Assembly (NCBI GenBank): GCA_029256845.1
Contig: JARIEI010000195.1
Location: 70-64,069, forward strand
Direction of reading: 5' to 3'
Length of the DNA stretch: 64,000 bases
From: Ruminococcus sp.
GTDB lineage: Bacteria; Bacillota; Clostridia; Lachnospirales; Lachnospiraceae
Part shown: piece by piece, positions 34,857 to 61,720 of the stretch
How the letters are laid out: each line of letters begins with the position of its first letter
Position numbering within the stretch: the first letter of the stretch is position 1
Made by a program: the position numbers and the translations under genes
The notes under the pieces: generated by a model
The model's database searches: none
What the model was told of the DNA's origin: nothing
What the model saw: only the letters and a program-made list of their open reading frames with translations

Positions 34857-34857
34857 A

Positions 34858-37744: not shown

Positions 37745-37754
37745 GAGAAAATCA

Positions 37755-39537: not shown

Positions 39538-39587
39538 CAGTACAGATGGTATCATGGAGTTGCAGGAGAAAATGTTAACAATGCTTA

Positions 39588-39615
39588 TTGAATATTTTGT
39601 CGAATGTGTTATAAT
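39588..39615 (+). promoter_or_regulatory. Candidate strong sigma-A promoter with extended -10, driving glycan module B
   Basis: TTGAAT (39588-39593), 16-nt spacer, TGtTATAAT (39607-39615). The spacer contains TGTCGAA (39598-39604). Confidence 0.5.
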
Positions 39616-39680
39616 GATTTTTAACTATGTAGATATTTTAAATTGGTGATTTCTGTCAACTTGTGTGGAAAGGGGAATAT

Positions 39681-41132: not shown

Positions 41133-41159
41133 TACAAATAAGGAAGAGAGAACAAGGTT

Positions 41160-43174: not shown

Positions 43175-43230
43175 TATGAGCTATACTCATTTGGAAAGGA
43201 ATTACATGATTGTAGTTATGGTGGAACAAA

Positions 43231-44040: not shown

Positions 44041-45482
44041 CTGATAATTTAAAAAAAGTATATGACAAAAGCCTAGAGTTTATAAAAAATGACTCTATTC
44101 TAATAGATGTGATTGTATTGTTTATTGTCAGGGTGCTTTATTCATTTGTTACATTCAAGTTATTAAATCACACATCATATTTTCCAAACGTTAGTTATGG
44201 TGTGAATTTGAAAAGCTACCTATCGCTTACTAGTAAAGATATAATTCCACTAATTATCTATACTGCAGTGATGTTTTTTATGCTTACAAGAAAATATAAA
44301 ATTTATTTTATCAAGATATTTGTGAGTATTATGTTTTGCTTGTATTATTTGCCTGTTAATGCATCATATTCACTTAATCAGGTCACGTATGGATACATGT
44401 TTCTTACAACAATATATGCAGTATTGATAATATATTTACTTTCTATTGAGTGGGAGAGTATAAGAGTATTTTCGTATCTGAAGAATAAATTTTCCGCTAA
44501 TAATGAAAAAAATATTTGCTGTGAGAACACAACTGTAAACACGAAGAAATACTTAAGTGTGTTCTTTGGTGTGTTATGCATTACATATATTGTATTTAAA
44601 ATATTTTATAACGGATTTACATTTAATATATCCATTTCACATGACGTAGTATATGCAATTAGAGCACAGTATGCCGCCTTTTTGGATAATATATCAGGTA
44701 CATGGTTTGCGTATGTTATTTCATTATTAACCAATTTAATAAGTTTTATTACTCCGATATATTTATTATATTCATTAGTTAACAATAGCGTTATAGGAGT
44801 TATTATTTCGATTGTAACTATTTTATCACAGTATTCCATTGAGGCTGGAAAAGGTTTATTATTTATGGTTCCAATCATAGTTTTTATTTTTATATTAAAT
44901 AAACTTCATTTGCTAGATTTTGGATCAAGATTGATATATTTAGGAATGTTAATTTTGATTGTTGTATCTTTTTGTGTTGTCTTAGTAAAAGATAGTAGCT
45001 TTATTTACACATATATTATAAGAAGAGAAATGTATTTGCCAGCAAGACTAAATGGACTATATTATGATTTTTTTTCCTCACATAGGAAAATCCATTGGAG
45101 TCAAAATACATTTATCTTGCAGAACATTTTAAATAACGTGTATGCTGAAGGACCGTTGGATATAATAAATAGAATTTATTTTAGGGGAAATGTTGTTTCA
45201 CCCAACACTGGTATGTTTGCAGAAGCATACATGCATTTCGGAATAATAGGTGTTTTGGTATACCCAATTTTATTAAATCTATTGGTTCGCGGATGTTCAT
45301 TAACTTATGCAAAAATAGGAAAAAGTATTTCAATGTTTGTTGCAGTGAAGTTGACAATTTCACTAACAAATGTGCCAATGGTGCGAACAGATTTTGTTTT
45401 GTCGGCTATTTTAGCAACGTTTTTAATATATTTAGTTTGTTATGTTTTGCAAAAAAAGAGAGGAAATTTTAATAAAAAATGA
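44037..45482 (+). CDS. Second Wzy-like polysaccharide polymerase / O-antigen-ligase-like polytopic membrane protein
   Basis: 481 aa with more than 10 TM helices, translationally coupled to GT genes on both sides (4-nt overlaps). The call rests on topology and context only. Confidence 0.5.
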   Translation: MTDNLKKVYDKSLEFIKNDSILIDVIVLFIVRVLYSFVTFKLLNHTSYFPNVSYGVNLKSYLSLTSKDIIPLIIYTAVMFFMLTRKYKIYFIKIFVSIMFCLYYLPVNASYSLNQVTYGYMFLTTIYAVLIIYLLSIEWESIRVFSYLKNKFSANNEKNICCENTTVNTKKYLSVFFGVLCITYIVFKIFYNGFTFNISISHDVVYAIRAQYAAFLDNISGTWFAYVISLLTNLISFITPIYLLYSLVNNSVIGVIISIVTILSQYSIEAGKGLLFMVPIIVFIFILNKLHLLDFGSRLIYLGMLILIVVSFCVVLVKDSSFIYTYIIRREMYLPARLNGLYYDFFSSHRKIHWSQNTFILQNILNNVYAEGPLDIINRIYFRGNVVSPNTGMFAEAYMHFGIIGVLVYPILLNLLVRGCSLTYAKIGKSISMFVAVKLTISLTNVPMVRTDFVLSAILATFLIYLVCYVLQKKRGNFNKK

Positions 45483-46480
45483 AAAAAAACAAGGTGACGA
45501 TTATATGTTTTGTGTATAATCATGAGAAATTTATAGCAGAGACTTTAAATGGCTTTTTGAGTCAAGAGACCAATTTTGAATTTAATGTTATAGTTCATGA
45601 TGATGCTTCTACAGATAAGAGTGCAGATATTATAAGGAAGTATGAGAAACTTTATCCAGATAAAATAGATGGAATATACCAAAAAGAAAATCAATATTCT
45701 AAAAATGTTGATATGGACGTGAAATATATTATACCTATGGTAAACTCAGAATATATCGCATATTGTGAAGGAGATGATTATTGGGAAGATACGTTAAAGC
45801 TCCAAAAACAAGTAAATGCTTTAGACAATAACTTGGATTGCGAGATGTGTGTTCATAAGGTTGCAGAAGTAGATATAAATGGGAATAAAAATGGACAGTA
45901 TTATCCAAATTATGAAATAAAAGAAGGAATAATTAAGACTGATCAGTTTTTAGAGATGTGTGAGTCGTATAGTTTTCACACAAGCAGCTACATGCTAAGG
46001 ACTAATAGTTGGGTGAAATTTAAAATAGAAGATATTTCGTTCAAAAATATTGCAAGTGTTGGTGATGAAATTATGCTTTTGTATTTTGGACACTTAGGTA
46101 ATGTGTATTACATAAATGAGTCTATGTCTTGCTATCGTAGAGGGGTTGAAGGAAGTTGGAGTAGTAGGATAGGTAATGCAAATAATGATGTGTATGTAAA
46201 TCACCTTGTTGACATGGAAAAGGTGATATCAGAATTTGATAAATATTCAAATTATAAATATCACAATATATGTTGTAAAAGAAATGGAATATATATGTTT
46301 AAGGAAGCTATTATTTCAAAAAAATACAATAAATTATTAAATAGTGAAAATAAAGAGATATTTGATACTCTATCAAAAAATAAAAGGCTGTTTATTAAGA
46401 TGGGGAGAATTTTTCCGGGATTAATTAAAAATATTTATAGATATCGAGTTGTACATTTGAATAAAAGACATTCTAGATAG
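45479..46480 (+). CDS. Glycosyltransferase family 2
   Basis: VTIICFVYNHEKFIAETLNGFLSQ, VHDDASTDKS and CEGDDYW (DxD) motifs. Confidence 0.88.
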   Translation: MKKNKVTIICFVYNHEKFIAETLNGFLSQETNFEFNVIVHDDASTDKSADIIRKYEKLYPDKIDGIYQKENQYSKNVDMDVKYIIPMVNSEYIAYCEGDDYWEDTLKLQKQVNALDNNLDCEMCVHKVAEVDINGNKNGQYYPNYEIKEGIIKTDQFLEMCESYSFHTSSYMLRTNSWVKFKIEDISFKNIASVGDEIMLLYFGHLGNVYYINESMSCYRRGVEGSWSSRIGNANNDVYVNHLVDMEKVISEFDKYSNYKYHNICCKRNGIYMFKEAIISKKYNKLLNSENKEIFDTLSKNKRLFIKMGRIFPGLIKNIYRYRVVHLNKRHSR

Positions 46481-46492
46481 AAGAGGAATATA

Positions 46493-47959
46493 ATGGAATC
46501 AAAGAGTAATACTAGTAAAGAAAGCGTTGCGTCAAATTTAATATGGAGACTTGCTGAAAGATTCGGGGCACAGTTTATCCAGTTTATAGTATCAATTGTC
46601 TTGGCAAGATTGCTGGCACCTGAGGCATACGGAACAATTGCATTAGTAGTAGTTATTGCACAGATATCACAGGTTTTTGTAGACAGTGGTTTAGGGAATG
46701 CACTTATTCAAAAAAAAGAAGTAGACGATTTAGATTATGCATCTGTTTTCTATTTTAATGTGGTATGGTGTCTTATAATATATGCAATAATTTTTGTGAT
46801 AGCACCATATATGGCTTCATTTTATGATGACACCTCGTTAACACCAATTATAAGGGTATTATGTTTAACAGTTGTTATATCAGGGTTGAAAAATGTTCAA
46901 CAGGCATATGTCTCAAGGAACATGATGTTTAAAAAATTCTTTTTCGCAACCCTTGGTGGAACAATATTATCAGCAGTAGTAGGTATAATTCTAGCGGTAT
47001 TGGGAAAAGGAGTGTGGGCTTTAGTTGCTCAAAAAATTGTGAATATCGCAACAGATACACTTGTTCTATGGTTTACTGTAAAATGGAGACCGAAGTTAAT
47101 GTTTTCATTCGTACGATTAAGAACACTGATTTCATATGGGTGGAAATTGCTTGTTTCTGCATTGTTAGATGCTATTTATGGAAACTTAAGGCAGTTGCTA
47201 ATCGGTAAAATGTATTCAAAGAGCGATCTTGCATATTACAATCAAGGAGATCAATTTCCTAATATTTTAGTGACAAATATAAATTCTTCAATTGATAGTG
47301 TACTTTTACCAACTATGTCAAAAGAGCAGGACAACAAAGAAAATGTAAAAAATATGACACGTAGAGCAATTAAAGTAAGTACATATGTAATGGCACCATT
47401 GATGTTTGGATTGTTTATAACAGCTAAAAATGTCATTATAATTGTTTTATCTGATAAGTGGATTAAATGTGTCCCATTTTTACAGATTTTTTGTGTTTCA
47501 TATTTATTTTATCCAATTCATACATCAAATTTAAATGCTATAAAAGCGATGGGGCGAAGTGATTTATTTTTGAGGTTAGAGATTGTAAAAAAAATGGTTG
47601 GATTATTTTTATTAGTTGTATCGATGAAGTATGGAGTTATGGCAATTGCGCTGAGCTCCCTTGTTGCGACATTTACAGGCATTATAATAAATTCATGGCC
47701 AAATAAAAAGCTTTTAAATTATTATTATTTGGATCAGTTAAAAGATATGGGATCTAGTTTATTATTAGCAAGTATTATGGCTATTGGCGTATATTTTATA
47801 GGTAAAATCAAATTAAATATTCTTTTAGTATTAATAATTCAAGTAATATCAGGTGGTGTTATATATATTATGTTATCTGTTATTTGCAAAAATGAATCGT
47901 TTATATATTTATTAGACATAATGAAAAATTTTCTAAAAAAAAGCAATAGGAACAAATAA
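46493..47959 (+). CDS. wzx: Second Wzx-type flippase (polysaccharide biosynthesis protein, MOP superfamily)
   Basis: NLIWRLAERFGAQFIQFIVSIVLARLLAPEAYG and GLGNALIQKK are typical of PST flippases. About 12-14 TM helices. Confidence 0.88.
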   Translation: MESKSNTSKESVASNLIWRLAERFGAQFIQFIVSIVLARLLAPEAYGTIALVVVIAQISQVFVDSGLGNALIQKKEVDDLDYASVFYFNVVWCLIIYAIIFVIAPYMASFYDDTSLTPIIRVLCLTVVISGLKNVQQAYVSRNMMFKKFFFATLGGTILSAVVGIILAVLGKGVWALVAQKIVNIATDTLVLWFTVKWRPKLMFSFVRLRTLISYGWKLLVSALLDAIYGNLRQLLIGKMYSKSDLAYYNQGDQFPNILVTNINSSIDSVLLPTMSKEQDNKENVKNMTRRAIKVSTYVMAPLMFGLFITAKNVIIIVLSDKWIKCVPFLQIFCVSYLFYPIHTSNLNAIKAMGRSDLFLRLEIVKKMVGLFLLVVSMKYGVMAIALSSLVATFTGIIINSWPNKKLLNYYYLDQLKDMGSSLLLASIMAIGVYFIGKIKLNILLVLIIQVISGGVIYIMLSVICKNESFIYLLDIMKNFLKKSNRNK

Positions 47960-48023
47960 CCTGAACATATCGTTTATTTAAATTGAACTTAAAAATTAAT
48001 AAACTTATAAGGGGAGAAAGATT

Positions 48024-49292
48024 ATGAAAAAGATATTAATGCTTGGAACAAGCAGTGGTTCTGTAGAAATGATAGAGTATGCCAAAAGTATTGGAGTGTA
48101 TACAGTTGTTACAGATTATCTTGAGCCAGAAGAATCAAATGCCAAACTTATTGCTGACGAAAGTTGGATGATAAGCACTGCGGATTTAGACAAACTAGCA
48201 GAGAAATGTGTTGAAGAAGGTATAACAGGTGTACTTAGTGGTGTAAGTGATTTTAATGTCACACAGGCAGTTAAACTTTCAGAAAGAATACAGACCCCAT
48301 TTTATTGTGATAGTACTGTATGGGCATATAGTAGAAATAAAGCTGCATTTAAAGAAAAATGTCGTAAATACGGGGTTCCAACTGCAAAGCAGTATTTTGT
48401 TTCAGATATTCCTACAGATGAAGAAATAGATAACATAGATTTTCCAGTTGTTGTTAAACCAATAGATGCCAGTGCCAATAGAGGATTTAGTTATTGTTAC
48501 AATAAACAACAATTTATAAAAGGATATGAAAAGGCCAAGGAAATATCTGTTAGTGGAAACATAGTTGTAGAAAAATTGTTAAAAGGTAAAGAATATACAG
48601 CGTTTTATGCTCTTGCAGATGGAGAAGCTCGTTTGGTTAATTTTTGGACAATGCTATCGCAATCAGGCATGCCAGAAAATTGTTATTCTGTAAATATGTC
48701 TGTGTCTGACGTTTTAAATCAATATAATAAAGATGTAGATTTCAAAGTAAAAAGATTATTAAAAGAGTTGGGCTATAGAGATGGTATAGTTTGGATTGAG
48801 TTTATGGCTGATGAAGATAATAGCCTTAACGCACTTGAAATTGGACATCGATTATCAGGAGAAATGCTTTGGTTGCCATTAAGTAATGTTCGAGATTTTA
48901 ATGCTATGAAATGGCTTGTTGATTATGTAGTTAATGGCAAAAACGAAATATCTAATTTACCTTGCGATCAAGCGGACAATAGTATTCGGTGTGCTTGTTC
49001 TTATATTTTATGGACAAAACAAGCAGGGATTGTTAAATCCGTAAATGGATTTGACGATTTATTGAATATCAGAGGAAGAAATGTAAATATTATTGCAAAG
49101 ATAGGAAAACATATCGATATATACAGATATGGAGCCATTGTAACATTTTACTCAGACGATATAGAACAAATGATAGCAGATATAAAGTATATTGACAGTA
49201 AGGTTAAAATATTAGATCAGGATGGAAATGATATGTTAATACATTTTGATGATTTTGAAAAAATAAGAAAAATATATAAGCATACAGTCTAG
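48024..49292 (+). CDS. ATP-grasp domain protein (carboxylate-amine ligase-like), copy 1
   Basis: KKILMLGTSSGSVEMIEYAKSIG pre-ATP-grasp Rossmann-like N-terminus. Central FPVVVKPIDASANRGF and VVEKLLKG segments typical of the ATP-grasp fold. Confidence 0.8.
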   Translation: MKKILMLGTSSGSVEMIEYAKSIGVYTVVTDYLEPEESNAKLIADESWMISTADLDKLAEKCVEEGITGVLSGVSDFNVTQAVKLSERIQTPFYCDSTVWAYSRNKAAFKEKCRKYGVPTAKQYFVSDIPTDEEIDNIDFPVVVKPIDASANRGFSYCYNKQQFIKGYEKAKEISVSGNIVVEKLLKGKEYTAFYALADGEARLVNFWTMLSQSGMPENCYSVNMSVSDVLNQYNKDVDFKVKRLLKELGYRDGIVWIEFMADEDNSLNALEIGHRLSGEMLWLPLSNVRDFNAMKWLVDYVVNGKNEISNLPCDQADNSIRCACSYILWTKQAGIVKSVNGFDDLLNIRGRNVNIIAKIGKHIDIYRYGAIVTFYSDDIEQMIADIKYIDSKVKILDQDGNDMLIHFDDFEKIRKIYKHTV

Positions 49293-49319
49293 TATAATTT
49301 TAATGAGGAGCAGAATGAT

Positions 49320-50702
49320 ATGAAATTAAACCATTCAAAATCAATGAATACTTTAGACGTTTTGATGATTGCATTTGGAGCAATGATTGGATGGGGATGG
49401 GTTGTTTCTTCTGGTGAATGGATAAAACAAGCTGGAGTATTGGGGACTGCATTAGGATTTATAATTGGTGGTATAATGATATATTTTGTGGGCCTTGTAT
49501 ACTCTGAGTTAACAACAGCACTTCCTAAAGAAGGTGTATTTGGATTTTGTAATCGTGCATATGGTCATTATCTTGCAGGAATATGTATGTGGATACTTAT
49601 ATTAAGTTATGTTGGTGTCGTTTGTTTTGAGGCGTGTTCATTTGCGACTGTAATACAGTATTTGGTACCTGGGTTTATGAGTGGATACTTATATTCGGTA
49701 GCTGGATTCGAAATATATGCATCGTGGTTATTGGTGTCGATAATAACTTGCGTCCTAATTATTGTTATAAATATTAGAGGGATAAAAACGGCAGCAGCAA
49801 TACAAACTATTCTAACAGTTATAATAGCAGGAGTAGGTGTGTTACTTATAGCATCGTCTGTATTAAGTGGAGATGTGTCAAATTTGCAGAATCAAGTTTT
49901 TGCGGAAGGCACGCATCATGATATTATTAAAAATACATTAGCTATTGCTGTGGTCGCCCCTTTTTTCTTGTTTGGATTTGACGTGATTCCTCAAGCAGCC
50001 GAAGAAATTAATGTGCCATTAAAAAAACTTGGAAAAATTCTTGTACTATCTATTATTTTAGCCGTTACATTCTATACACTAGTTGTATTTTCAATTGGAT
50101 ACGTAATGAATAGTTCACAAATTGAAATAGAAAATAAGACTACTGGTTTGGTTGCGGCTAAAGCAATGTCTATTGCTTTTAATAGTCATAATATGTCGAA
50201 AGTTTTAATACTGGGCGGAGTGTGTGGAATATTGACAAGCTGGAATTCATTTTTAATTGGTGGAAGCAGAGCAATATATTCACTTTCAAAATCAGGATTG
50301 TTTCCACGTAGGTTTTCCAAAATACATCCGAAATATCACACGCCTCAAAATGCTATTTTACTTATTGGTGTGTTATCTATTTTTTCAACATTTTTTGGAC
50401 GAGTGATGTTAACATGGGTTGCAAATGTGGCTAGTTTTGCTTGCTGTATAGCATATTTTATTGTGTCCATATCGTATATTGCGTTGCGGATTAAGGAACC
50501 TAATATGACCAGACCGTTTAAAATAAAATATGGAGTTCTAGTCGGTGTCATTGCAAGTATTTTGTCGATGATATTATGCTTATTATATATAATACCGGGA
50601 ACAGGATGTACATTAAATTCTCAAGAATGGAAAATTATTATTGTTTGGGCAACTATTGGCGTTGGGCTTGTGTTATTAAAGAAGACAGGAGTGATGAAAT
50701 GA
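49320..50702 (+). CDS. APC-superfamily amino acid permease
   Basis: About 12 TM helices. The N-terminal LDVLMIAFGAMIGWGWVV...GGIMIYFVGLVYSELTTALPKEG matches the amino-acid permease signature region. Confidence 0.88.
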   Translation: MKLNHSKSMNTLDVLMIAFGAMIGWGWVVSSGEWIKQAGVLGTALGFIIGGIMIYFVGLVYSELTTALPKEGVFGFCNRAYGHYLAGICMWILILSYVGVVCFEACSFATVIQYLVPGFMSGYLYSVAGFEIYASWLLVSIITCVLIIVINIRGIKTAAAIQTILTVIIAGVGVLLIASSVLSGDVSNLQNQVFAEGTHHDIIKNTLAIAVVAPFFLFGFDVIPQAAEEINVPLKKLGKILVLSIILAVTFYTLVVFSIGYVMNSSQIEIENKTTGLVAAKAMSIAFNSHNMSKVLILGGVCGILTSWNSFLIGGSRAIYSLSKSGLFPRRFSKIHPKYHTPQNAILLIGVLSIFSTFFGRVMLTWVANVASFACCIAYFIVSISYIALRIKEPNMTRPFKIKYGVLVGVIASILSMILCLLYIIPGTGCTLNSQEWKIIIVWATIGVGLVLLKKTGVMK

Positions 50703-50718
50703 AAAGGGAGAGATTATT

Positions 50719-51933
50719 GTGAAAAAAATTTTGTTACTTGGAGGATCAGAACAACAAATTGTTGCTATTGAAACAGCAAAAAAATTGGGGTTTTATACAA
50801 TATTGTGTGATTATCTTGTAGATAATCCAGGACAATATGTTGCTGATAAATTTTATCTTGCTAGTACAACAGACAAGGAATTAATTTTAAAAATTGCTAT
50901 TGAAGAAAAAATAGATGGTATAGTTGCGTATGCATCGGATCCGGCTGCCCCCACAGCAGCATATGTTGCAGAGGTGCTGAAATTGTCTGGAAATCCATAT
51001 GAATCAGTTGAAATATTATGTAATAAAGATAAGTTCAGAAAGTTCCTTTCAGAAAACAAATTTAGTACACCAGTTTCCAGAGGATATGAAGATGAAAAGA
51101 AGGCAATTTTTGATATTCAGAATAATTTTTACGAATTCCCGATTATTATAAAACCTGTCGATTCATCTGGAAGTAAAGGAATTACTGTTTTATACGATAA
51201 AAAAGATGTAAAATGTGCAATAGATTATGCTTTTAAGTTCTCAAGAGCTAAAAGAATTATTGTGGAGGAATTTATTGAAAATAAACATGAATACCTTGTT
51301 GGTGGAGATATTTTCATTAAAGATGGAAAAGTTGTATTATGGGGATTATTAAATTGTCATAGAGACTATGAGGTTAATGATTTAGTTCCTGTAGGCAAGA
51401 GTTATCCGTTAAAGTTAAATGAAAACGACAAAGACAATATTAAAGGTACCCTTCAAAACTTAGTGACGTTGCTTGGTTTAAAGTCAGGCGCAATGAATGT
51501 AGAATTAATTATAGATAAAAATGATACAATACGATTAATTGATGTTGGGCCAAGAAATGGAGGAAATATGATTCCGGATTTACTTGGATATATATTTAAC
51601 ATTGATGTCGTGGAACTTACAATCTTATCTGCCATGGGCATGGAGTATAATATTGATATTACAGAGAAAGAAGACAGTTTTTATGCCACTCACAATTTAC
51701 ATTCTGAGCAAAGCGGATATTTTGCAGGTGTAGAGTTTTCACAAGAAATCAACAGATATATATTTAGGAAAAATATTTATAAGAAAAAGAATGATCCGGT
51801 AGAATATTTTGATCATGCAGCAAAAGCGTTAGGAATTATTTTTATGAAGTTTGATACCATCGAAGAAATGGATTACATTCTCAATAACATCAATAATCAT
51901 ATTCATATAAAACTTAAAAAGGAAGTGATATAA
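50719..51933 (+). CDS. ATP-grasp domain protein, copy 2
   Basis: GTG start. KKILLLGGSEQQIVAIETAKKLG N-terminus, then FPIIIKPVDSSGSKGITV and IVEEFIEN ATP-grasp segments. Divergent from copy 1. Confidence 0.83.
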   Translation: MKKILLLGGSEQQIVAIETAKKLGFYTILCDYLVDNPGQYVADKFYLASTTDKELILKIAIEEKIDGIVAYASDPAAPTAAYVAEVLKLSGNPYESVEILCNKDKFRKFLSENKFSTPVSRGYEDEKKAIFDIQNNFYEFPIIIKPVDSSGSKGITVLYDKKDVKCAIDYAFKFSRAKRIIVEEFIENKHEYLVGGDIFIKDGKVVLWGLLNCHRDYEVNDLVPVGKSYPLKLNENDKDNIKGTLQNLVTLLGLKSGAMNVELIIDKNDTIRLIDVGPRNGGNMIPDLLGYIFNIDVVELTILSAMGMEYNIDITEKEDSFYATHNLHSEQSGYFAGVEFSQEINRYIFRKNIYKKKNDPVEYFDHAAKALGIIFMKFDTIEEMDYILNNINNHIHIKLKKEVI

Positions 51934-53052
51934 TTGAATAGGAAAATTTTAGTAACACAATCGTCTATGCCGAAATATGAGGAATATATAGAAGAAATTA
52001 AAGATTTATGGGAATCTCATTGGCTTACAAACATGGGAGACAAGCATCAGACACTTCAAAAAGAATTACTAAGCTATCTTGATGTAAATAATGTTGAGTT
52101 ATTTACAAATGGACACATGGCATTGGAATTGTCGTTACAGGCTTTAGATTTTAAAGTGGGTGATGAAGTTATTACAACACCATTTACCTTTGCTTCTACA
52201 ACACAGGCTATTGTCCGAAATGGTTTAATACCTGTCTTTTGTGATATTAATCCAATTGATTTTACAATAGATGTAACCAAAATAGAAAAATTGATTACAG
52301 AGAAAACAGTTGCAATAATGCCTGTGCATGTTTACGGAAATGTATGCAACGTTGAAGAAATAGAGCGTATATCTCAAAAGTATGGCTTAAGAGTAATTTA
52401 TGACGCAGCACATGTATTTGGTGTTAAATATAAAAATAAAGGTATTGGCTCGTTTGGTGATGTTTCTTGTTTTAGTTTTCATGCAACGAAGGTTTTCAAT
52501 ACAATTGAAGGTGGTTGTGCAAGTTTTTCTGATGAAAAAATTGGCAAACGTTTATATGAACTTAAAAATTTTGGTATTAAGAATCAAGATGAGGTAGAAT
52601 GTGTTGGAGCTAATGCCAAAATGAATGAGTTTTGTGCAGCTATGGGATTATGTAACCTTAGGCATTTGGATGCAGAAATTTTCAAAAGAGCGAAAGTAGT
52701 TGAATGTTATAGAAAAAATCTTTGTGGTATAGAAGGAATAACATTAAATCCCATACAAAAAAATGTTGTCCCTAACTATGCATATTTTCCTATTATTGTC
52801 GATGAAAAAATATTTGGTCATACGCGTGATGAGATTATGGATGAATTAGCAAGATATGACATAGGAGCACGAAAATATTTTTATCCACTTACAAGTTCAT
52901 TTCAATGCTATAATGGAGCATATGACACAAATGAAACTCCAGTAGCATTGTATATGAGTACACATGTGTTAACGTTACCATTATATGCCGATTTAGAACT
53001 AAAAATTGTTGATAAGATATGTAACATTATCTCAAATATGAATAATAAATAA
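51934..53052 (+). CDS. DegT/DnrJ/EryC1/StrS-family sugar aminotransferase (NDP-keto-deoxyhexose transaminase-like)
   Basis: TTG start abutting the upstream stop. Catalytic-lysine context SFHATKVFNTIEGG. Located immediately upstream of rmlA and rmlB. Confidence 0.88.
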   Translation: MNRKILVTQSSMPKYEEYIEEIKDLWESHWLTNMGDKHQTLQKELLSYLDVNNVELFTNGHMALELSLQALDFKVGDEVITTPFTFASTTQAIVRNGLIPVFCDINPIDFTIDVTKIEKLITEKTVAIMPVHVYGNVCNVEEIERISQKYGLRVIYDAAHVFGVKYKNKGIGSFGDVSCFSFHATKVFNTIEGGCASFSDEKIGKRLYELKNFGIKNQDEVECVGANAKMNEFCAAMGLCNLRHLDAEIFKRAKVVECYRKNLCGIEGITLNPIQKNVVPNYAYFPIIVDEKIFGHTRDEIMDELARYDIGARKYFYPLTSSFQCYNGAYDTNETPVALYMSTHVLTLPLYADLELKIVDKICNIISNMNNK

Positions 53053-53067
53053 TAGTGAGGACAAGTT

Positions 53068-53952
53068 ATGAAAGGAATTATTTTAGCAGGTGGATCTGGA
53101 ACGCGATTATATCCATTAACTCGGGTTACATCAAAACAATTATTGCCTATTTATGACAAACCAATGATTTATTACCCATTGTCAACTCTTATGCTAGCAG
53201 GGATACGTGAAATTTTAATTATTTCAACACCTGATGATATTTCAAGATTTGAGGCGTTATTAGGTGACGGGAGTCAGTTCGGAATTAGTTTGTCGTATGC
53301 AGTTCAGCCGAGTCCAGATGGTTTAGCCCAGGCATTTATAATTGGACAGGAATTTATTGGTGATGATGCGTGTGCGTTAGTTCTTGGAGATAATATTTTT
53401 TATGGTGGATGGTTTAGAAAAAATTTACAAGAAGCTGTTGTAAATGCTGAAAATGGAAATGCTACTATTTTTGGATATTATGTAAAGGATCCAGAGAGGT
53501 TTGGTATTGTAGAATTTGATAAAAATAAAAATGTAATTTCGGTTGAAGAGAAACCTGAATATCCTAAATCTAATTATTGTATTACTGGATTATATTTTTA
53601 CCCATCAGGTGTTGCAAAGATGGCGATAAATGTCAAACCGTCTAAACGTGGCGAGTTAGAAATTACAACATTAAATGATATGTATTTAAAAGATAACAAG
53701 CTTAAAGTGCAGATATTAGGACGAGGATTTGCGTGGTTAGATACAGGAACTATGGATAGCCTTATGGAAGCATCTTTATTTGTTCAAACAGTGCAAAATA
53801 GACAAGGAGTTGTTATTTCTGCACCTGAAGAAATTGCGTATCATGAGGAATGGATTAATAAAGAAAAGTTATTAGAATCAGCAGAAATGTATGGTAAATC
53901 ACCATACGGTGAACATTTAAGAAAAGTAGCAGAGGATAGATTATTTTTTTAG
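53068..53952 (+). CDS. rmlA: Glucose-1-phosphate thymidylyltransferase RmlA
   Basis: [25 protein letters not shown] and AWLDTGT motifs. Confidence 0.95.
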
Positions 53953-53963
53953 GGAGTGTTGAT

Positions 53964-54983
53964 ATGAATATTATTGTAACAGGTGGAGCTGGATTTATAG
54001 GTAGTAATTTTATATTTTATATGTTAAAAAAACATCCAGAGTACAGAATTATATGTTTGGACAAACTTACTTATGCTGGAAATTTGTCTACGCTTTCTTC
54101 TGTAATGGATAACCCACAATTTCGATTTGTAAAGTTAGATATATGTGATAGGAATGCAGTATATAATTTATTTGAAGAAGAAAAACCGGATATTATTGTA
54201 AATTTCGCAGCAGAAAGTCACGTTGATCGTTCAATTGAAGAACCAGAAATTTTTTTGAATACAAATATTATAGGAACAGCAGTATTGATGGATGCTTGTA
54301 GAAAATATGGTATACAAAGGTTTCATCAAGTTAGCACGGATGAGGTCTATGGCGATTTGCCTTTAGATAGACCAGATTTGTTTTTTACAGAAGAAACTCC
54401 AATCCATACAAGTAGTCCATATAGTAGTTCGAAAGCATCTGCTGACTTATTAGTGCTTGCATATCATAGGACATATGGATTGCCTGTTTCGATAAGTAGA
54501 TGTTCAAATAATTACGGACCATATCAATTTCCAGAAAAACTTATTCCTCTTATAATTGCAAATTGTCTTAACAATAAGCCACTTCCAGTGTATGGTGAGG
54601 GATTGAATGTTAGGGATTGGTTATATGTAGACGACCACTGTAAAGCCATTGATTTGATTATTCATAAAGGCAAAGTTGGTGAAGTTTATAATGTTGGTGG
54701 ACATAATGAAATGAAAAATATAGATATTGTAAGAATTATGTGTAAAGCTCTTGGAAAATCAGAAAACTTGATTACATATGTAGCAGATAGAAAAGGACAT
54801 GATATGCGTTATGCGATTGATCCGACAAAGATTCATGATGAACTTGGGTGGTTGCCAGAAACTAAGTTTGAAGATGGAATTCAAAAGACAATTCAATGGT
54901 ATTTAGAGAATAAACAATGGTGGGAAACCATTATAAGCGGTGAATATCAGAATTATTATGAAAGTATGTATGGGAATCGTTAG
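53964..54983 (+). CDS. rmlB: dTDP-glucose 4,6-dehydratase RmlB
   Basis: IIVTGGAGFIGSNF, STDEVYGD and YSSSKASAD (YxxxK) motifs. Confidence 0.95.
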   Translation: MNIIVTGGAGFIGSNFIFYMLKKHPEYRIICLDKLTYAGNLSTLSSVMDNPQFRFVKLDICDRNAVYNLFEEEKPDIIVNFAAESHVDRSIEEPEIFLNTNIIGTAVLMDACRKYGIQRFHQVSTDEVYGDLPLDRPDLFFTEETPIHTSSPYSSSKASADLLVLAYHRTYGLPVSISRCSNNYGPYQFPEKLIPLIIANCLNNKPLPVYGEGLNVRDWLYVDDHCKAIDLIIHKGKVGEVYNVGGHNEMKNIDIVRIMCKALGKSENLITYVADRKGHDMRYAIDPTKIHDELGWLPETKFEDGIQKTIQWYLENKQWWETIISGEYQNYYESMYGNR

Positions 54984-54998
54984 TAAGGAGGACTCGTA

Positions 54999-56255
54999 AT
55001 GAAAGAATTTTCTGATTTAAAAATTGCGGTAGCTGGAACTGGATATGTGGGTTTGTCTATCGCAACGTTACTTGCGCAACATCATCAAGTTATTGCTGTA
55101 GATATAGTACCAGAAAAAGTCGATTTAATTAATAATAGAAAGTCACCTATTCAGGATGAATACATTGAAAAGTATTTGACAGAAAAAAAATTGAATTTAA
55201 CTGCCACACTTGATGGTGAAACCGCATACAAAGATGCGGATTTTGTTGTGATTGCAGCTCCTACAAATTATGATAGTAAAAAGAATTTCTTTGACACATC
55301 AGCTGTTGAATCAGTCATTCAAATGGTTATAAAATGTAATCCGGATGCAGTTATGGTTATAAAGTCTACGATCCCAGTTGGCTTTACTGCTCATGTGAGA
55401 GAAAAATATTGCAGTAATAATATTATTTTTAGTCCGGAATTTCTAAGAGAGTCAAAAGCATTATATGATAATTTGTATCCGTCAAGAATTATTGTGGGAA
55501 CAGACACAGATAATGTTCAGTTGGTAAATGTAGCAAATACATTTGCTACATTATTACAAGAAGGTGCAATTAAAGAGAATATAGATACTTTAATTATGGG
55601 GTTCACAGAGGCAGAAGCAGTCAAACTATTCTCAAATACATATCTAGCACTTCGGGTGTCATATTTTAATGAACTTGATACTTATGCAGAATTAAAAGGG
55701 TTAAACACGCAGCAGATTATTAATGGGGTTTGTTTAGATCCGCGTATAGGTTCTCATTATAATAATCCATCTTTTGGTTATGGAGGGTATTGTCTTCCTA
55801 AGGATACAAAACAGCTACTTGCAAATTATGAAGATGTACCTCAGAATATGATGTCCGCGATTGTAGAGTCAAATCGAACAAGAAAAGATTTTATTGCAGA
55901 TAGAGTTTTGGCTATGGCGGGGTATTATGATTATTTTAATAGTGGTGAATTTTCGATAGATCACGAAAAAGAATGTGTTATAGGTGTATATCGTTTGACT
56001 ATGAAATCACATTCGGATAACTTCCGTCAATCATCTATTCAAGGAGTTATGAAACGAATCAAGGCTAAAGGAGCTACAGTTATTGTATATGAACCTACAC
56101 TTGAGGATGGTTCTACATTTTTTGGATCTAAAGTTGTAAATAATATAGATGAATTTAAAAAAATGAGCCAAGCAATCATTGCGAACAGATATGATTCAAT
56201 TCTTGATAGTGTAAGAGAAAAGGTATATACAAGAGATATATTTAAAAGAGATTAG
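54999..56255 (+). CDS. ugd: UDP-glucose 6-dehydrogenase
   Basis: [15 protein letters not shown]-binding fold. Catalytic-Cys context [11 protein letters not shown]. The ~418-aa HasB-type length fits. Confidence 0.9.
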
Positions 56256-56292
56256 AGATAACATCTTTAAATGAAATTAAGTACTAAGAGGA

Positions 56293-59145
56293 ATGAGAAA
56301 AATTATGAAAAAAAAGATTGTACTGTTAAGTATGATGTTTATGATATGTTTGTTCTCTTTTTGGAATCAAATAACATTCGCATCAGATGAAACTACAGTA
56401 GAGCATCATAAAGAAGAAACAATAGACGACTATGAAAGTGGAGTTACGGAAGAACAAGAAAAAAAAGAATATGACATTTTAATGTGGTCAGAAGATGCAA
56501 AAACAACATTGCTCAGATTATTGACAAATTTACATAAGAATATTAATAAAGAGCACCCAGAGTTTGCACTTTGTGAAAATCCACAGTGGAATACTGAACT
56601 TACAAATAACTCTATTGAAAAACTAAAATATCAGTTTGAAAATTATATTTCAAAAGGTGGGTTTGAAGAAAATGCATATGAAAATGTATTTCCATATGAA
56701 AATCAAGAAATGATAGTGATGGGGGCTGATAATAAAGGCAATACATCTGATCAGTTATATGTATTTTTAGAAAATCTGTTGTCAGGTAATTATGAAAATA
56801 AAGATACAGTTAAAATCATAAAAGACTTTTTGGAAATAGAAGAAATAGGAGCAGCATATAATGTATTTTCTGTAGAAAACAAATATGGTGTGCATGAATT
56901 AATTTCGTATAAAAAAAGAATAATTAATAGAGACGAAACAATAGAACAAGAATTGTATAATTATATTACAACAGAGTTATTAAATAATAAGGAGAATATT
57001 CAAACTTTATTGCAAAATCCAGTAGAAAGCACTGATACAGAAAATAGTGAAAGTAATGTGGAAGATCCAAGTGTGTCAGAAAAGCAAGATAATGATATAA
57101 ATGGTCAAGAAGAATACACCCACTCACCTGAAGAATCAGAAATAGTAATAGAGCAAGGAAAATCCCATTGGATTACAGATGGATATGGGAAAAAATATTG
57201 TTATGCAGATGGAAGTTTTGCCAAAGGGTATACTTTAATTGATGGATATTATTATTTTTTCAATCAAAATGGATATATGCAAGTAGGTCATGTGGTGGTA
57301 GATGGTCAAGCGTATCAATTTTGGCATGAAGCAGGATATGGTCGATCAAAAGGCTGGGTAAATTATCCAGATGGGAAAAAGGCATACTGCCTGGGCGACG
57401 GAAAACTTGCGATAGGGTACACCAAAATAGAAAATAAATATTACTATTTTGGAAATGATGGATGTATGCAAACGGGACATGTAGTTGCAGATGGTCAGGC
57501 ATATCAGTTTTGGCATGAAGCAGGATATGGCCGACCAAAAGGTTGGGTAAATTATCCGGATGGAAAAAAAGCATATTGTTTAGGTGATGGAAAACTTGCG
57601 ATGGGGTACACCAAAATAGAAAATAGATATTACTATTTTGGAAATGATGGATGTATGCAAGTAGGACATGTAATTGCAGATGGTCAGGCATATCAATTTT
57701 GGCATGAGGCGGGATATGGTCGACCAAAAGGCTGGATAGATTACTCAGATGGGAAAAAAGCATATTGTGAAGGAAACGGAAAACTTGCAATAGGTGGCCG
57801 AATAATAGATGGAACATACTACAGATTTAATAAAGAAGGCTATTTGATGACAAACAATAAGTGGATCACAGATGGTACTGGGAAAAAATATGTGTATGAG
57901 GATGGAAGTTTAGCTACTGGATACATGATAATAGATGGACAGTATTATTATTTTAACCAGAATGGATATATGCAAGTAGGTCATGTGGTAGTAGATGGTC
58001 AGGCATATCAATTTTGGCATGAGGCAGGCTATGGACGACCAAAGGGGTGGATAAATTACCCAGACGGAAAAAAGGCATACTGTCTAGGGAATGGAAAACT
58101 TGCGATGGGATATACCAAAATAGAAAATAAATATTATTATTTTGGCAATGATGGATGTATGCAAGTAGGACATGTGGTAGTAGATGGTCAGGCATATCAA
58201 TTTTGGTATGAAGAAGGCTATGGACGACCAGCAGGTTGGATAAATTATCCTGGCGGAAAAAAGGCTTACTGTATGGGAAATGGAATACTTGCTAAAGGGT
58301 ATACTAAGATAGAAAACAAATTTTACTATTTTGGAAATGATGGATGTATGCAAGTAGGTCATGTGGTAGCAGATGGTCAGGCATATCAATTTTGGTGTGA
58401 AGCAGGCTATGGACGACCAGTAGGATGGATAAATTATCCAGATGGAAAAAAAGCGTATTGTTTAGGCAATGGGAAATTAGCAATAGGCCAACTGAAAATA
58501 GGAAAGAGTATTTATTATTTTGATAGTGAAGGTTATCTGATTAAAACGGAAAAAAGAGGAATAGATGTATCAGAATTTCAGGGCAAGATAGATTGGAGAG
58601 CTGTGAAAAAATCAGGTATTGAATTTGCCTTTATCCGTGTAGGTGGAAGATATGGTCTTAGTGGTAAGTTTTATGAGGACAAGCAATATCATAATAATAT
58701 GAAAGGTGCCGCTCAAAATGATATAGATACAGGAATATATTTTTTTACACAAGCAATTAATGAAGCAGAAGCTATACAAGAAGCAAGATTTGCATGTAGC
58801 CGTTTAAAAGGATATGATATTAAATTTCCTGTTGTAATTGACACAGAATCTTTAGAAGGATGCAGACATAATAATTTAACGGTACAACAAAGAACAAATG
58901 TTGTTAAAGCATTTTGTGAAGAGGTTATTCGACAAGGATATAAGCCGATGATTTATTCAGGACTATACTGGTTACAAGATAATTTAGACATGAGTCAATT
59001 AACCAAATATGATGTCTGGGTAGCACAATACAACTTAACATGTGATTATAAAGGAAAATATAGCTGTTGGCAGTACACCTCTAAGGGCTCTGTACCAGGA
59101 ATTAAGGGAAATGTAGATATGAATATATGGTATTATAACAAATAA
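56293..59145 (+). CDS. Secreted cell-wall-binding-repeat protein with a C-terminal GH25 muramidase (lysozyme) domain
   Basis: Signal peptide (MKKKIVLLSMMFMICLFSFWNQITFA; the start may be the ATG at 56305). A ~270-aa unique N-terminal region. About 460 aa of CW_binding_1-type aromatic/Gly repeats (GYxxIDGxYYYFxxxGxM). GH25 start GIDVSEFQGKIDW at ~58558. Confidence 0.88.
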   Translation: MRKIMKKKIVLLSMMFMICLFSFWNQITFASDETTVEHHKEETIDDYESGVTEEQEKKEYDILMWSEDAKTTLLRLLTNLHKNINKEHPEFALCENPQWNTELTNNSIEKLKYQFENYISKGGFEENAYENVFPYENQEMIVMGADNKGNTSDQLYVFLENLLSGNYENKDTVKIIKDFLEIEEIGAAYNVFSVENKYGVHELISYKKRIINRDETIEQELYNYITTELLNNKENIQTLLQNPVESTDTENSESNVEDPSVSEKQDNDINGQEEYTHSPEESEIVIEQGKSHWITDGYGKKYCYADGSFAKGYTLIDGYYYFFNQNGYMQVGHVVVDGQAYQFWHEAGYGRSKGWVNYPDGKKAYCLGDGKLAIGYTKIENKYYYFGNDGCMQTGHVVADGQAYQFWHEAGYGRPKGWVNYPDGKKAYCLGDGKLAMGYTKIENRYYYFGNDGCMQVGHVIADGQAYQFWHEAGYGRPKGWIDYSDGKKAYCEGNGKLAIGGRIIDGTYYRFNKEGYLMTNNKWITDGTGKKYVYEDGSLATGYMIIDGQYYYFNQNGYMQVGHVVVDGQAYQFWHEAGYGRPKGWINYPDGKKAYCLGNGKLAMGYTKIENKYYYFGNDGCMQVGHVVVDGQAYQFWYEEGYGRPAGWINYPGGKKAYCMGNGILAKGYTKIENKFYYFGNDGCMQVGHVVADGQAYQFWCEAGYGRPVGWINYPDGKKAYCLGNGKLAIGQLKIGKSIYYFDSEGYLIKTEKRGIDVSEFQGKIDWRAVKKSGIEFAFIRVGGRYGLSGKFYEDKQYHNNMKGAAQNDIDTGIYFFTQAINEAEAIQEARFACSRLKGYDIKFPVVIDTESLEGCRHNNLTVQQRTNVVKAFCEEVIRQGYKPMIYSGLYWLQDNLDMSQLTKYDVWVAQYNLTCDYKGKYSCWQYTSKGSVPGIKGNVDMNIWYYNK
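57169..58554 (+). repeat. Nested in-frame tandem repeats: 189-bp (63-aa) units arranged in two ~693-bp higher-order blocks
   Basis: GW(V/I)NYPDGKKAYC units start at 57352, 57541 and 57730, and again at 58045, 58234 and 58423, each exactly 189 bp apart. WITDG-initiated blocks start at 57169 and 57862, 693 bp apart. Confidence 0.9.
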
Positions 59146-59286
59146 AATAGAAATATCTTTAGTTTACTATATGTTAGATTGAAGAGTTCGAAAGTATATA
59201 GGTGAAAAATACAAGTGCAGACACATAAAATCATAGTGCTGAAATAAAAGAAAAGAAAAATGACCCTACAAGGGAGGAGAAAAACA

Positions 59287-59970
59287 GTGGTAATAAAAAA
59301 ATGGAACGATCTTCCTGATTTCTTAAAAAATGAAGAAGTCAGAGAATATTATGATTTGTTAAGAAAAAGAAAAATCAGCTTGGTATTTAAAAGGATATTT
59401 GATGTGATTATGTCTTTTGTTTTATTGGTTTTACTTTCTCCAGTGTTTTGTGTTTTAGCATTTCTTATAAAAAAAGATTCCAAAGGTCCTGTCTTTTATA
59501 GACAAGTTAGAGTTACACAATATGGACGTGAATTTCGTATTTTTAAGTTTAGGACTATGGTCAACAACGCAGATAAAATAGGAGCCCATGTTACTTCTAA
59601 TAATGACTGCAGAATAACAAAAATTGGAAAGAAGATCAGAAGTTGTCGCTTGGATGAGATACCGCAACTGATTAACGTATTTCTTGGAGACATGTCTTTT
59701 GTGGGAACTAGGCCTGAAGCGGTGAAATATGTAAAAGAATATACACCAGAAATGATGGCTACGCTTCTTCTACCAGCGGGTATTACATCTGATGCAAGCA
59801 TAACGTATAAAGACGAAGCGGAATTGTTAGAAAACGCAGAAGATGCAGACAAAGTGTATGTTGAAAAAATATTGCCAGAAAAAATGAAATATAATTTACA
59901 GAGTATCAGACAATTCAATTTGATATATGAAATTAGGATTATGTTTAAAACGATACTGGCGGTGTTGTAA
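59287..59970 (+). CDS. Small monotopic phosphoglycosyl transferase (bacterial sugar transferase; PglC/WbaP C-terminal type)
   Basis: GGGAGGAG lies 7 nt before the GTG at 59287; the ATG at 59260 is an alternative start. [18 protein letters not shown] re-entrant helix. GPVFYRQVRV...FKFRTM and DEIPQLINVFLGDMSFVGTRPE motifs. Confidence 0.88.
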   Translation: MVIKKWNDLPDFLKNEEVREYYDLLRKRKISLVFKRIFDVIMSFVLLVLLSPVFCVLAFLIKKDSKGPVFYRQVRVTQYGREFRIFKFRTMVNNADKIGAHVTSNNDCRITKIGKKIRSCRLDEIPQLINVFLGDMSFVGTRPEAVKYVKEYTPEMMATLLLPAGITSDASITYKDEAELLENAEDADKVYVEKILPEKMKYNLQSIRQFNLIYEIRIMFKTILAVL

Positions 59971-59984
59971 CTGAATATAGAAAA

Positions 59985-60040
59985 AGAGCAACAAGGTTTC
60001 TGGGTGTTAAGATGCATCAGAAACCTTGTTACTCTTTTTT
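59985..60040 (+). terminator. Strong intrinsic terminator after the PGT gene
   Basis: 18-bp stem agagcaacaaggtttctg / cagaaaccttgttactct with one mismatch, followed by T6 (60035-60040). Confidence 0.85.
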
Positions 60041-60078
60041 ACAATATTTTTAATATCATATTAAGAAAATATTATTTT

Positions 60079-60107
60079 GTTGCGAAAAGATGTTAAAAGT
60101 GTTACTA
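60079..60107 (+). promoter_or_regulatory. Candidate sigma-A promoter for module C
   Basis: TTGCGA (60079-60084), 17-nt spacer, TGtTACTAT (60099-60107). Sequence match only. Confidence 0.3.
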
Positions 60108-60153
60108 TTGTTCTGAGTTAAGTCTAAATTTATATTGATTAAATAAAACAAAG

Positions 60154-61656: not shown

Positions 61657-61720
61657 ATGTTTTAGACAATTTTTTTGATTTGAGTTGTTTAAAATAGAAT
61701 AAGTTAGAGAGGAAACAAAA

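Follow-up and report, generated by a model that had tools for sequence, protein, structure and literature searches.

What a gene for an amino-acid permease is doing between the genes of two ATP-grasp ligases, within an operon for polysaccharide assembly, is the question raised by a 64,000-nucleotide (nt) stretch of DNA (the window) from Ruminococcus sp. (Lachnospiraceae; assembly GCA_029256845.1, contig JARIEI010000195.1). The initial annotation of this stretch proposed that the genes make an amino-deoxyhexose and/or a uronic acid carrying amide-linked amino acids, one ligation per ATP-grasp enzyme, with the permease as a dedicated importer of a substrate. The genes are tightly packed on the + strand in the order which that annotation gave, and they are the distal part of a Wzx/Wzy-type polysaccharide operon. 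Open reading frames (ORFs) are present at exactly the coordinates listed here, which are positions in the window, and their Pfam or NCBIfam identities are given in parentheses:

48024-49292, + strand: ATP-grasp ligase A, 422 amino acids (aa) (PF13535, ATP-grasp_4, 2.9e-11)
49320-50702, + strand: APC-superfamily permease, 460 aa (PF13520, AA_permease_2, 1.7e-40, full length)
50719-51933, + strand: ATP-grasp ligase B, 404 aa (PF13535, 2.1e-12)
51934-53052, + strand: DegT2, a DegT/DnrJ/EryC1 sugar aminotransferase (Pfam, 2e-97)
53068-53952, + strand: RmlA, glucose-1-phosphate thymidylyltransferase (TIGR01207, 460 bits, cutoff 360.65)
53964-54983, + strand: RmlB, dTDP-glucose 4,6-dehydratase (TIGR01181, 500.9 bits, cutoff 365.1)
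54999-56255, + strand: Ugd-type nucleotide-sugar dehydrogenase (TIGR03026, 304.7 bits, cutoff 189.8; three UDPG_MGDP_dh domains)

Based on this gene content and its recurrence in other genomes, we consider it moderately probable that the block is a nucleotide-sugar decoration cassette, in which acids would be amide-linked to the amino sugar made by the DegT enzyme and one of these acids would enter the cell through a dedicated importer. Intergenic gaps are 0 to 64 nt, and a purine-rich, Shine-Dalgarno-like sequence lies 5' of every start, GTG and TTG starts included. The permease gene is flanked by gaps of 27 and 16 nt which, together with these ribosome-binding sequences, indicate that it is co-transcribed with both ligase genes. 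Terminator-like sites between genes are not above chance in the region scanned (39300-59290), where promoter and terminator counts equal those of shuffled sequence and do not inform the operon boundaries.

The two ligases share 26% identity, in keeping with their earlier description as divergent. Both are above the Pfam cutoff for ATP-grasp_4, and the TupA-like ATP-grasp family is absent among their Pfam matches. Profile and structure searches of the kind proposed with the initial annotation reach no central-metabolism family and return L-amino-acid ligases (LALs) as neighbours. NCBIfam models for PurD, PurK, PurT, CarB, AccC, Ddl, GshAB, and cyanophycin synthetase score only 18 to 81 bits against cutoffs of 218 to 1027, and a role of A or B in these pathways was rejected; the LdmS and DdaF models are matched, far under their cutoffs. 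The best match of both ligases in a PDB sequence search is 4DIM, a structural-genomics protein of unknown function (6.7e-24 for B), and further matches are the LAL 3VOT for B (8.7e-19) and, for A, 7R8P (1.8e-6), which is LdmS, the L-Asp-L-Met ligase of S. aureus (PMC9486568). AlphaFold2 models of A and B (predicted local distance difference test scores of 93.7 and 86.9, respectively) each retrieve more than 600 PDB ATP-grasp matches with Foldseek at E ≤ 0.001, with template modelling scores of 0.7 to 0.8. The top PDB match of A is the LAL 3VOT (BL00235; 6.8e-27), and the matches of B include 4DIM, 3VOT, YwfE/BacD, and RizA. In the search with A, biotin carboxylases come next, with E-values no more than about two orders of magnitude from that of 3VOT, so the fold alone cannot place A in the LAL class. 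On sequence and modelled structure combined, the closest characterized relatives of both ligases are LALs.

The conserved ATP-grasp positions, namely the lysine of the 'VKP' strand, the hinge glutamate, and the E/D-x-G/N-x-R motif, are present in both proteins. In A, K145, E183, E272, and R276 show no variation in 22 homologues (motif 'ALEMGYR'), and in B the corresponding K145, E183, D275, and R279 are invariant among its homologues (motif 'IDVGPR'). The C-terminal domain 2 of LALs (PF18603) is unreported for A and B at E ≤ 0.001 and is recorded in several homologues of both (P0021, P0044, P0130, and P0136) and in fused relatives. The family of A comprises 341 clusters at 50% identity (E ≤ 1e-30), and more than 7700 homologues of B were found, the nearest about 65% identical.

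A profile of ligase A, run against one genome per GTDB species, yielded 57 loci, the genes of which were called with a simple ORF finder and labelled by BLAST against the window proteins; retrieval relied on motif patterns and is non-exhaustive. The loci belong to Oscillospiraceae/Ruminococcaceae, Lachnospiraceae, Erysipelotrichaceae, Bacteroidales, Collinsella, and one metagenome-assembled genome (MAG) each of Kiritimatiellia and spirochaetes, and all 57 carriers are gut- or rumen-type anaerobes. A marker of polysaccharide loci (Wzx, DegT, ligase B, or a phosphoglycosyl transferase [PGT]) is located on the same strand within 8 kb of A in 53 of the 57. The partners of A are ligase B (40 loci), DegT (38), Wzx (32), PGT (10), and Ugd (6). 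The gene directly downstream of A encodes a secondary transporter in 34 of the 57 loci, and three further loci end at a contig edge. These transporters belong to three families: BCCT (26, made up of 21 full-length genes, 4 short ORFs that fall in the same BLAST cluster, and a single weak Pfam match), APC (5), and SSF (3); the BCCT and SSF assignments are upheld by Pfam. Orthologues of DegT2 (56% to 77% identity) are found with ligase B elsewhere, in 29 of 39 cases ligase B has a DegT gene no more than 3 kb away, and orthologues of the operon's Wzx (53% to 72% identity) adjoin the cassette in many loci.

The order of these genes is variable. Ligase B-ligase A-BCCT-DegT2 occurs 8 times, and DegT2-ligase B-U320-ligase A followed by BCCT or APC occurs 9 times, U320 being an additional protein considered below. 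Among the 57 loci, the window order A-APC-B-DegT2 is otherwise present only in one close relative (L008), and the Logan contigs L005 and L006 have this order with a BCCT gene in the APC slot. Variable order points to selection on the gene set rather than to shared ancestry of one operon. The same gene families occur together in dozens of unrelated genomes, far beyond chance, and a conserved set with variable order and non-orthologous replacement of the transporter argues for functional coupling. In genomic terms, A is the ligase coupled to a transporter and B is the ligase coupled to DegT. The module is widespread in gut Firmicutes and Bacteroidota, including Mediterraneibacter faecis, and only the exact gene order of the window is particular to this lineage. 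The gene set thus recurs across genomes mainly inside glycan loci, and the view of the initial annotation that the ligases act on an amino sugar made by the DegT enzyme gains support from these neighbourhoods and from the LAL-like sequence and fold of the ligases. No characterization of the cassette was found in the open-access full-text literature, and the layout, which that annotation saw as unusual and undescribed, is not rare.

Several genes without a counterpart in the cassette accompany the module elsewhere. The U320/U311-type protein, soluble and about 310 to 350 aa long, is encoded between B and A in 17 of the 57 loci and is missing from the window (examples are L011:7000-7971, L050:3297-4247, L065:2760-3695, and 20+ others). 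It has no Pfam or NCBIfam match and aligns with DegT over 280 columns at 90.5% probability in hhalign, with a lysine at the position of the DegT Schiff-base lysine, as in a distant, shortened DegT-like fold of pyridoxal-phosphate (PLP) enzymes. A 410-aa protein after ligase B (L050:2041-3273; also L074 and L080) has no family match, a Cys-rich C-terminus, and a 'SCGIDS' motif reminiscent of PP-loop ATP pyrophosphatases. Directly upstream of A in several loci is a gene for a ~295-aa HTH_3 protein with a weak nucleotidyl-transferase-like segment, which may be a local regulator (L012:6994-7890, L050:7009-7896, and L154:8210-9109; also L021 and L057). In a sub-clade of A that lacks the transporter, the downstream gene encodes a ~200-aa protein with one N-terminal membrane anchor and no family match (L017:9293-9904 and five other Ruminococcaceae loci). 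A ~405-aa gene after BCCT was rejected as a member of the module, being an EpsG/Wzy-type polymerase.

The permease of the window matches PF13520 with 139.7 bits over residues 10 to 445, contains 12 hydrophobic segments, and has GkApcT (5OQT) as its nearest solved structure. None of the substrate-defined equivalogs (BcaP, ethanolamine, GABA, CycA, and others) is reached, the scores being 173 bits for TIGR00909 (cutoff 557) and 149 bits for BcaP (cutoff 690). Its top 120 homologues are 57% to 62% identical, apart from a 91% identical counterpart in L008 and two longer proteins at 53% to 55%. Three homologues with 58% to 60% identity were sampled, and all three are encoded directly or one gene after an A-type ATP-grasp in Wzx/DegT loci: Wzx-DegT-B-U311-A-APC in M. 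faecis, Wzx-DegT-B-A-APC in a second lineage, and, in a third, Wzx-GNAT-PylC-like grasp-A-like-OCD-APC-DegT, where OCD denotes an ornithine-cyclodeaminase-family enzyme.

A permease profile run against metagenomes contributed a further 80 loci, for a total of 92 permeases from the window, the genome loci, ENA/Logan contigs, and this metagenome scan. Of these, 24 are in glycan loci, 63 are in another conserved operon, and 5 are undetermined. Within the glycan loci, 19 of 24 are located within 5 kb of A on the same strand, typically directly downstream, and the others follow a more divergent ATP-grasp or an OCD-family gene. The other operon has the order helix-turn-helix-cupin regulator, class-III aminotransferase, Cytidylate_kin2-like gene, permease, and Fe-alcohol dehydrogenase. 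Its aminotransferase passes the ArgD-subfamily cutoff (425 bits, cutoff 410) and is replaced in some loci by an OCD/mu-crystallin-family enzyme. This operon (L070-L149, e.g., L128:5081-10637 and L100:6021-10762) carries permeases with 54% to 57% identity, some contigs having permease-dehydrogenase fusions of 882 to 894 aa, and it looks like an uncharacterized route for breaking down the same solute or one like it. The window itself has a gene of the Cytidylate_kin2-like family (29432-29944, - strand), the family that precedes the permease in these catabolic operons, convergent to a gene for a sodium:dicarboxylate-symporter-family transporter (28115-29389).

The prevalence of this second context among metagenome members of the subfamily would be expected if the permease were an ordinary nutrient transporter, inserted by chance between glycan genes and carried along with them. 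We regard such hitch-hiking as highly improbable. Transporters of three families occupy the slot after A, an association that was tested and is strong, and chance insertion was rejected on this recurrence. A neighbor-joining tree groups the operon-type permeases in one derived clade and has the glycan-linked ones, including that of the window, as deep branches of the subfamily; the short flanking gaps with their own Shine-Dalgarno sequences also argue against it. A dedicated importer, as first suggested in the annotation, is therefore the role that the interchange of APC, BCCT, and SSF genes supports, and it is a part of the decoration cassette as we propose it.

The sugar to be decorated is best approached through DegT2. 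This protein has a DegT_DnrJ_EryC1 domain over its whole length (327 bits), and its best NCBIfam model is DesI (256.5 bits, under the cutoff of 650). Its PDB neighbours include the C-4 enzymes DesI (2PO3) and perosamine synthase as well as the C-3 enzyme QdtB. DegT2 is thus probably a C-4 aminotransferase acting on dTDP-4-keto-6-deoxyglucose. RmlA and RmlB, which would provide this keto-sugar, both pass their equivalog cutoffs. The absence of rmlC from the window, noted in the initial annotation, was borne out when two RmlC proteins of related loci, verified with Pfam, served as tblastn queries (best E = 0.56). An RmlD-like reductase gene (27179-28096), directly ahead of the symporter gene, is about 26 kb from rmlA and rmlB.

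Ugd, which supplies UDP-glucuronic acid (UDP-GlcA) as judged by its family (571.5 against PRK15057, under the cutoff of 757), opens a different route to an amide. Ligase A could activate the C-6 carboxylate of GlcA, on the nucleotide sugar or lipid-linked, and couple it to the amine of an imported amino acid or to another imported amine, in the manner of Cj1438C of Campylobacter jejuni, leaving B alone to acylate the DegT2 sugar. Amino-acid amides of uronic acids are present in O-antigens. Furthermore, ugd is the last gene of the block, is kept in L008, and is near A in L010, L016, and L048, and an ATP-grasp enzyme that amidates capsule GlcA is experimentally established (PMC11800379). However, Ugd accompanies A far less often than DegT does (6 and 38 of the 57 loci, respectively), and neither window ligase matches the TupA-like family to which that enzyme, the C-terminal domain of Cj1438 (Cj1438C), is assigned (PMC11800379). 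We therefore consider amidation of the uronic acid rather unlikely, and the uronic branch of the product first proposed is weaker than the amino-sugar branch. Coupling to the sugar amine, as the favoured decoration cassette requires, is preferred over the GlcA carboxylate because DegT is the most consistent partner and because B occurs in M. gnavus beside GNAT and DegT genes, with neither A nor a transporter.

Fused relatives of A point the same way. A-type proteins are fused to a PGT, a GNAT acetyltransferase, an OCD-family enzyme, or a second ATP-grasp. The PGT::A fusions P0367 and P0508 (42% identity to A) follow genes for a PglF-like dehydratase and a DegT enzyme and precede an APC permease. 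The PGT of the window lies about 10 kb downstream of A, eight genes apart, and a PGT is adjacent to A in 10 of the 57 loci of relatives. Such adjacency and fusion, in loci with a dehydratase and DegT, correspond to the architecture of PglB2, in which the acceptor is a sugar amine, and favour the same acceptor for A over the uronic acid. The GNAT::A fusions (P0371 and P0466) would fit acetylation of an alpha-amine left free after ligation on the carboxylate side, which also speaks against GlcA amidation. A Bacteroidales-type capsule locus (L152:4488-10381 and L153) has a NusG/UpxY-like gene, DegT, a PF12897 Asp_aminotransf-family enzyme, a 647-aa PGT::ATP-grasp fusion, and an APC permease, that is, a PglB2-like enzyme with its own importer. 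The A::OCD fusion (P0454) represents a further type; in L150:4563-11514 and L151 the order is Wzx-DegT-B-A::OCD fusion-ATPgrasp_ST-ATPgrasp_ST-RmlA-RmlB, with four ATP-grasp domains in a row. Together with the tandem double ATP-grasp proteins, this row suggests that short peptide chains can be built on the glycan without a ribosome or a non-ribosomal peptide synthetase.

Peptide building of this kind, and the fact that the closest characterized relatives (BL00235, YwfE/BacD, RizA, and LdmS) all ligate free amino acids, are also what one would expect if A and/or B were true LALs. They would then join imported and endogenous amino acids into a soluble peptide of two or three residues, which would be a metabolite in its own right or would be attached to the glycan later by another enzyme, and the permease could import a precursor or export the product. 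The near confinement of the gene set to loci with Wzx, glycosyltransferase, and DegT genes (53 of 57) and the PGT fusions in some lineages make a free peptide quite unlikely. In addition, a separate transferase for a ready-made peptide, such as one of the FemAB type, is not present in the window and was seen only in L013 and L042, and APC, BCCT, and SSF proteins are typically uptake systems or antiporters.

If the block is a decoration cassette acting on a sugar amine, the following pathway can be proposed. RmlA and RmlB would yield dTDP-4-keto-6-deoxyglucose by the established chemistry of their equivalog families, and DegT2 would transaminate this keto-sugar to a dTDP-4-amino-4,6-dideoxyhexose, C-4 being the most likely position. 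Ligase B would then couple an intracellular amino acid, its carboxylate activated as an acyl-phosphate, to the sugar amine, a step that needs no importer. Ligase A would do likewise with a second acid, brought in by the adjacent APC permease. The acceptor of this acid would be either the first residue, whose free amine would then carry it in a dipeptidyl side chain, or another amino sugar within the repeat unit. The cell would depend on an importer here, since the cargo is probably not plentiful in the cytoplasm. The decorated sugar would be built by the operon's GT2 enzymes into a repeat unit with GlcA from Ugd, after which Wzx would flip it, the Wzy-like protein would polymerize it, and an LCP enzyme would attach the polymer to the wall. 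Since the operon has no acetyltransferase and GlcA is present, the free amine would be kept and a zwitterionic glycan is plausible. The sugar-supply steps of RmlA and RmlB and the assembly steps rest on well-defined families, and those of DegT2, B, and A are inferred from context.

Transporter models do not name the cargo, as all APC, BCCT, and SSF equivalogs are far under their cutoffs. The enzymes encoded beside the permease or A in relatives are an ArgD/RocD-like aminotransferase, an OCD-family enzyme, a LysA-like PLP decarboxylase (L137), a PylC-like ATP-grasp (L069 and L154), and an octopine-dehydrogenase-family enzyme (L155). This is the chemistry of di-amino and omega-amino acids, which hints that the cargo of the APC variants is an ornithine/lysine-like or omega-amino acid and need not be a standard proteinogenic one. 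The octopine-dehydrogenase-family gene (L155:8218-9315) is located between a U320-like gene and an A-like ligase and recalls the carboxyethyl-lysine ('opine') substituents of Proteus and Providencia O-antigens. The BCCT transporters have their best scores, below threshold, with carnitine/gamma-butyrobetaine and glycine-betaine models, and these variants may use a betaine- or carnitine-like acid. In their aromatic box, which bears on the binding of quaternary amines, the 'WT..YW' core is conserved but the Trp positions after it are variable. The candidate cargos all share a carboxylate and a cationic nitrogen, and we hypothesize that coupling of the carboxylate by an ATP-grasp ligase would leave a positive charge on the glycan.

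The closest genome, that of Oscillospiraceae MAG088 (L008), provides a view of how the cassette may change. It is collinear with window positions 42231-57180 at 85% to 87% nucleotide identity, and the upstream part of the operon is collinear as well, at 84% to 93% protein identity. Collinearity is broken at 51180-51942, the C-terminal two-thirds of ligase B, which has no blastn match to the corresponding segment (L008:8984-9819). The two B proteins are about 88% identical over residues 1 to 118 and about 35% identical over residues 120 to 404. It looks as if the part of B that governs catalysis and specificity has undergone mosaic or allelic replacement, which may be a route to diversification of the glycan (serotype).

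The genes around the cassette, identified with Pfam and, for the upstream part, a count of hydrophobic segments, are as follows:

39663-46480, + strand: upstream part of the operon, with an LCP ligase at 39663, DegT1 at 41160, a GT2 at 42398, a GT2-like gene at 43231, a Wzy-like protein with 10 transmembrane segments at 44037, and a GT2 at 45479
46493-47959, + strand: Wzx-type flippase of the same operon (Polysacc_synt_3, 6.6e-96)
56293-59145, + strand: choline-binding-repeat GH25 muramidase, 950 aa (Glyco_hydro_25, 1.3e-37; Choline_bind_3, 7.1e-27)
59260-59970, + strand: small PGT (Bac_transf, PF02397, 4.2e-56), a candidate priming enzyme
from 60154 and from 61721: a second LCP ligase gene and a third DegT, respectively

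The muramidase gene is placed between ugd and the small PGT gene and, if the side chain is cationic, its choline-binding repeats could speculatively make the protein a reader of the decorated glycan. The window contains at least three adjacent glycan loci, with those at 30073-39155 and 59260-62854 on either side of the cassette operon. The upstream locus includes a GT4, a second Wzx, a Wzy-like protein with 8 transmembrane segments, and a leucine-rich-repeat protein (32364-33461), which is unusual for a glycan locus, as well as an MBOAT and AlgX-like SGNH pair (36245-39155) typical of polymer O-acylation. The downstream locus opens with the PGT, LCP, and third DegT genes listed above.

Several points weigh against decoration of the DegT2 sugar by both ligases. 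The support for it is genomic inference, with the division of labour between A and B resting on neighbourhood statistics, and proven substrates are not on record for any homologue of A or B. The score of DegT2 under the DesI cutoff does not fix the position and stereochemistry of amination, and the presence of Ugd in this operon leaves some weight for a GlcA-amide product at this locus. About two-thirds of the 92 permeases belong to the catabolic-looking operon, so the subfamily is not restricted to decorating glycans. The gene calls in the loci are crude, and the neighbor-joining trees were made without support values.

In gut commensals, both susceptibility to phages and the immune response of the host are shaped by capsules and wall glycans, and zwitterionic polysaccharides in particular are immunomodulatory. 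Many Clostridia and Bacteroidales of the gut and rumen have the cassette, and ligase B is also present in M. gnavus. Cultivable carriers include M. faecis, Holdemanella hominis L34, Lachnospiraceae AC2029, and Bacteroides stercorirosoris DSM 26884. If decoration depends on an imported metabolite, the chemistry of the cell surface would be linked to the nutritional environment, for which the only well-known parallel, to our knowledge, is the scavenging of choline by lic systems. Extending this idea, gut anaerobes might scavenge a cationic acid that they do not synthesize (ornithine/lysine-type or omega-amino for APC, betaine/carnitine-type for BCCT) and amide-link it to an amino sugar, giving a zwitterionic surface glycan with charge and antigenicity set by diet and microbiota metabolites. 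Exchange of the transporter family, or of the ligase allele in the way that the window differs from MAG088, would then re-program the decoration, and choline-binding-repeat proteins encoded in the locus may dock on the cationic side chain. This extended scenario is speculative and, taken as a whole, unlikely. Ligases with the predicted nucleotide-sugar acceptors would extend the LAL class and provide enzymes for the N-aminoacyl sugars of O-antigens.

Among known systems, the C-terminal amidoligase of Campylobacter jejuni Cj1438 is the only experimentally proven glycan amidoligase found in a search of the open-access literature, an ATP-grasp enzyme that makes the serinol/ethanolamine amide of GlcA in the HS:2 capsule (PMC11800379). 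It shares with the window genes the position of an ATP-grasp inside a polysaccharide locus and an amide-linked decoration. However, Cj1438C is TupA-like, the group that it activates is the carboxylate of the sugar, and its phosphorylated amino-alcohols are synthesized by the cell, with no importer, whereas the window ligases are LAL-like and associated more with DegT than with Ugd. In PglB2 of Neisseria, an ATP-grasp domain is fused to a PGT and the product is the 4-N-glyceroyl sugar glyceramido-acetamido-trideoxyhexose (GATDH); here an ATP-grasp in place of an acetyltransferase puts a non-acetyl acyl group on the 4-amine of a nucleotide sugar (PMC11130364). The likeness to the 42% identical relatives of ligase A is one of architecture, a PGT::ATP-grasp protein following a 4,6-dehydratase and a DegT enzyme. 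In contrast, ligase A of the window is a stand-alone protein, its sugar would be based on a dTDP-6-deoxyhexose rather than the UDP-HexNAc of PglB2, and PglB2 has neither a transporter partner nor a second ligase.

The LALs (BL00235/3VOT, YwfE-BacD, RizA, and LdmS/7R8P) share the three-domain ATP-grasp fold and the catalytic K, E, and (E or D)-x-G-x-R residues with A and B. Identity to the window ligases is only 14% to 21%, and LALs, encoded in loci for secondary metabolites or amino-acid metabolism, ligate one free amino acid to another, whereas the context of A and B predicts a nucleotide-sugar amine as the acceptor. The lic locus of Streptococcus pneumoniae and Haemophilus influenzae encodes the choline permease LicB with LicA, LicC, and LicD, and is alike in combining an importer with enzymes that attach an imported, non-synthesized compound to a surface glycan. 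It differs in linking phosphocholine by a phosphodiester via CDP-choline, using other protein families, with no ATP-grasp and no amide. The predicted kind of product is known from Gram-negative O-antigens, where Qui4N and Qui3N carry N-acetyl-glycyl, -alanyl, -seryl, and -aspartyl groups, and lysine or carboxyethyl-lysine amides of galacturonic acid are present in those of Proteus and Providencia. A ligase assigned to any of these O-antigen structures, or such a structure in Clostridia, was not found in the literature searched, and ATP-grasp genes in Bacteroides and Vibrio capsule loci are mentioned there with no functional data. N-aminoacyl amino sugars as structures, and decoration with a scavenged compound through an operon-encoded importer as for choline, are thus already known, as is ATP-grasp amide decoration of glycans by PglB2 and Cj1438C. 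What appears to be new is the pairing of LAL-type ligases with a DegT enzyme, the link between a second ligase and its own secondary transporter, a role that members of three families can fill, and the breadth of this module in gut anaerobes.

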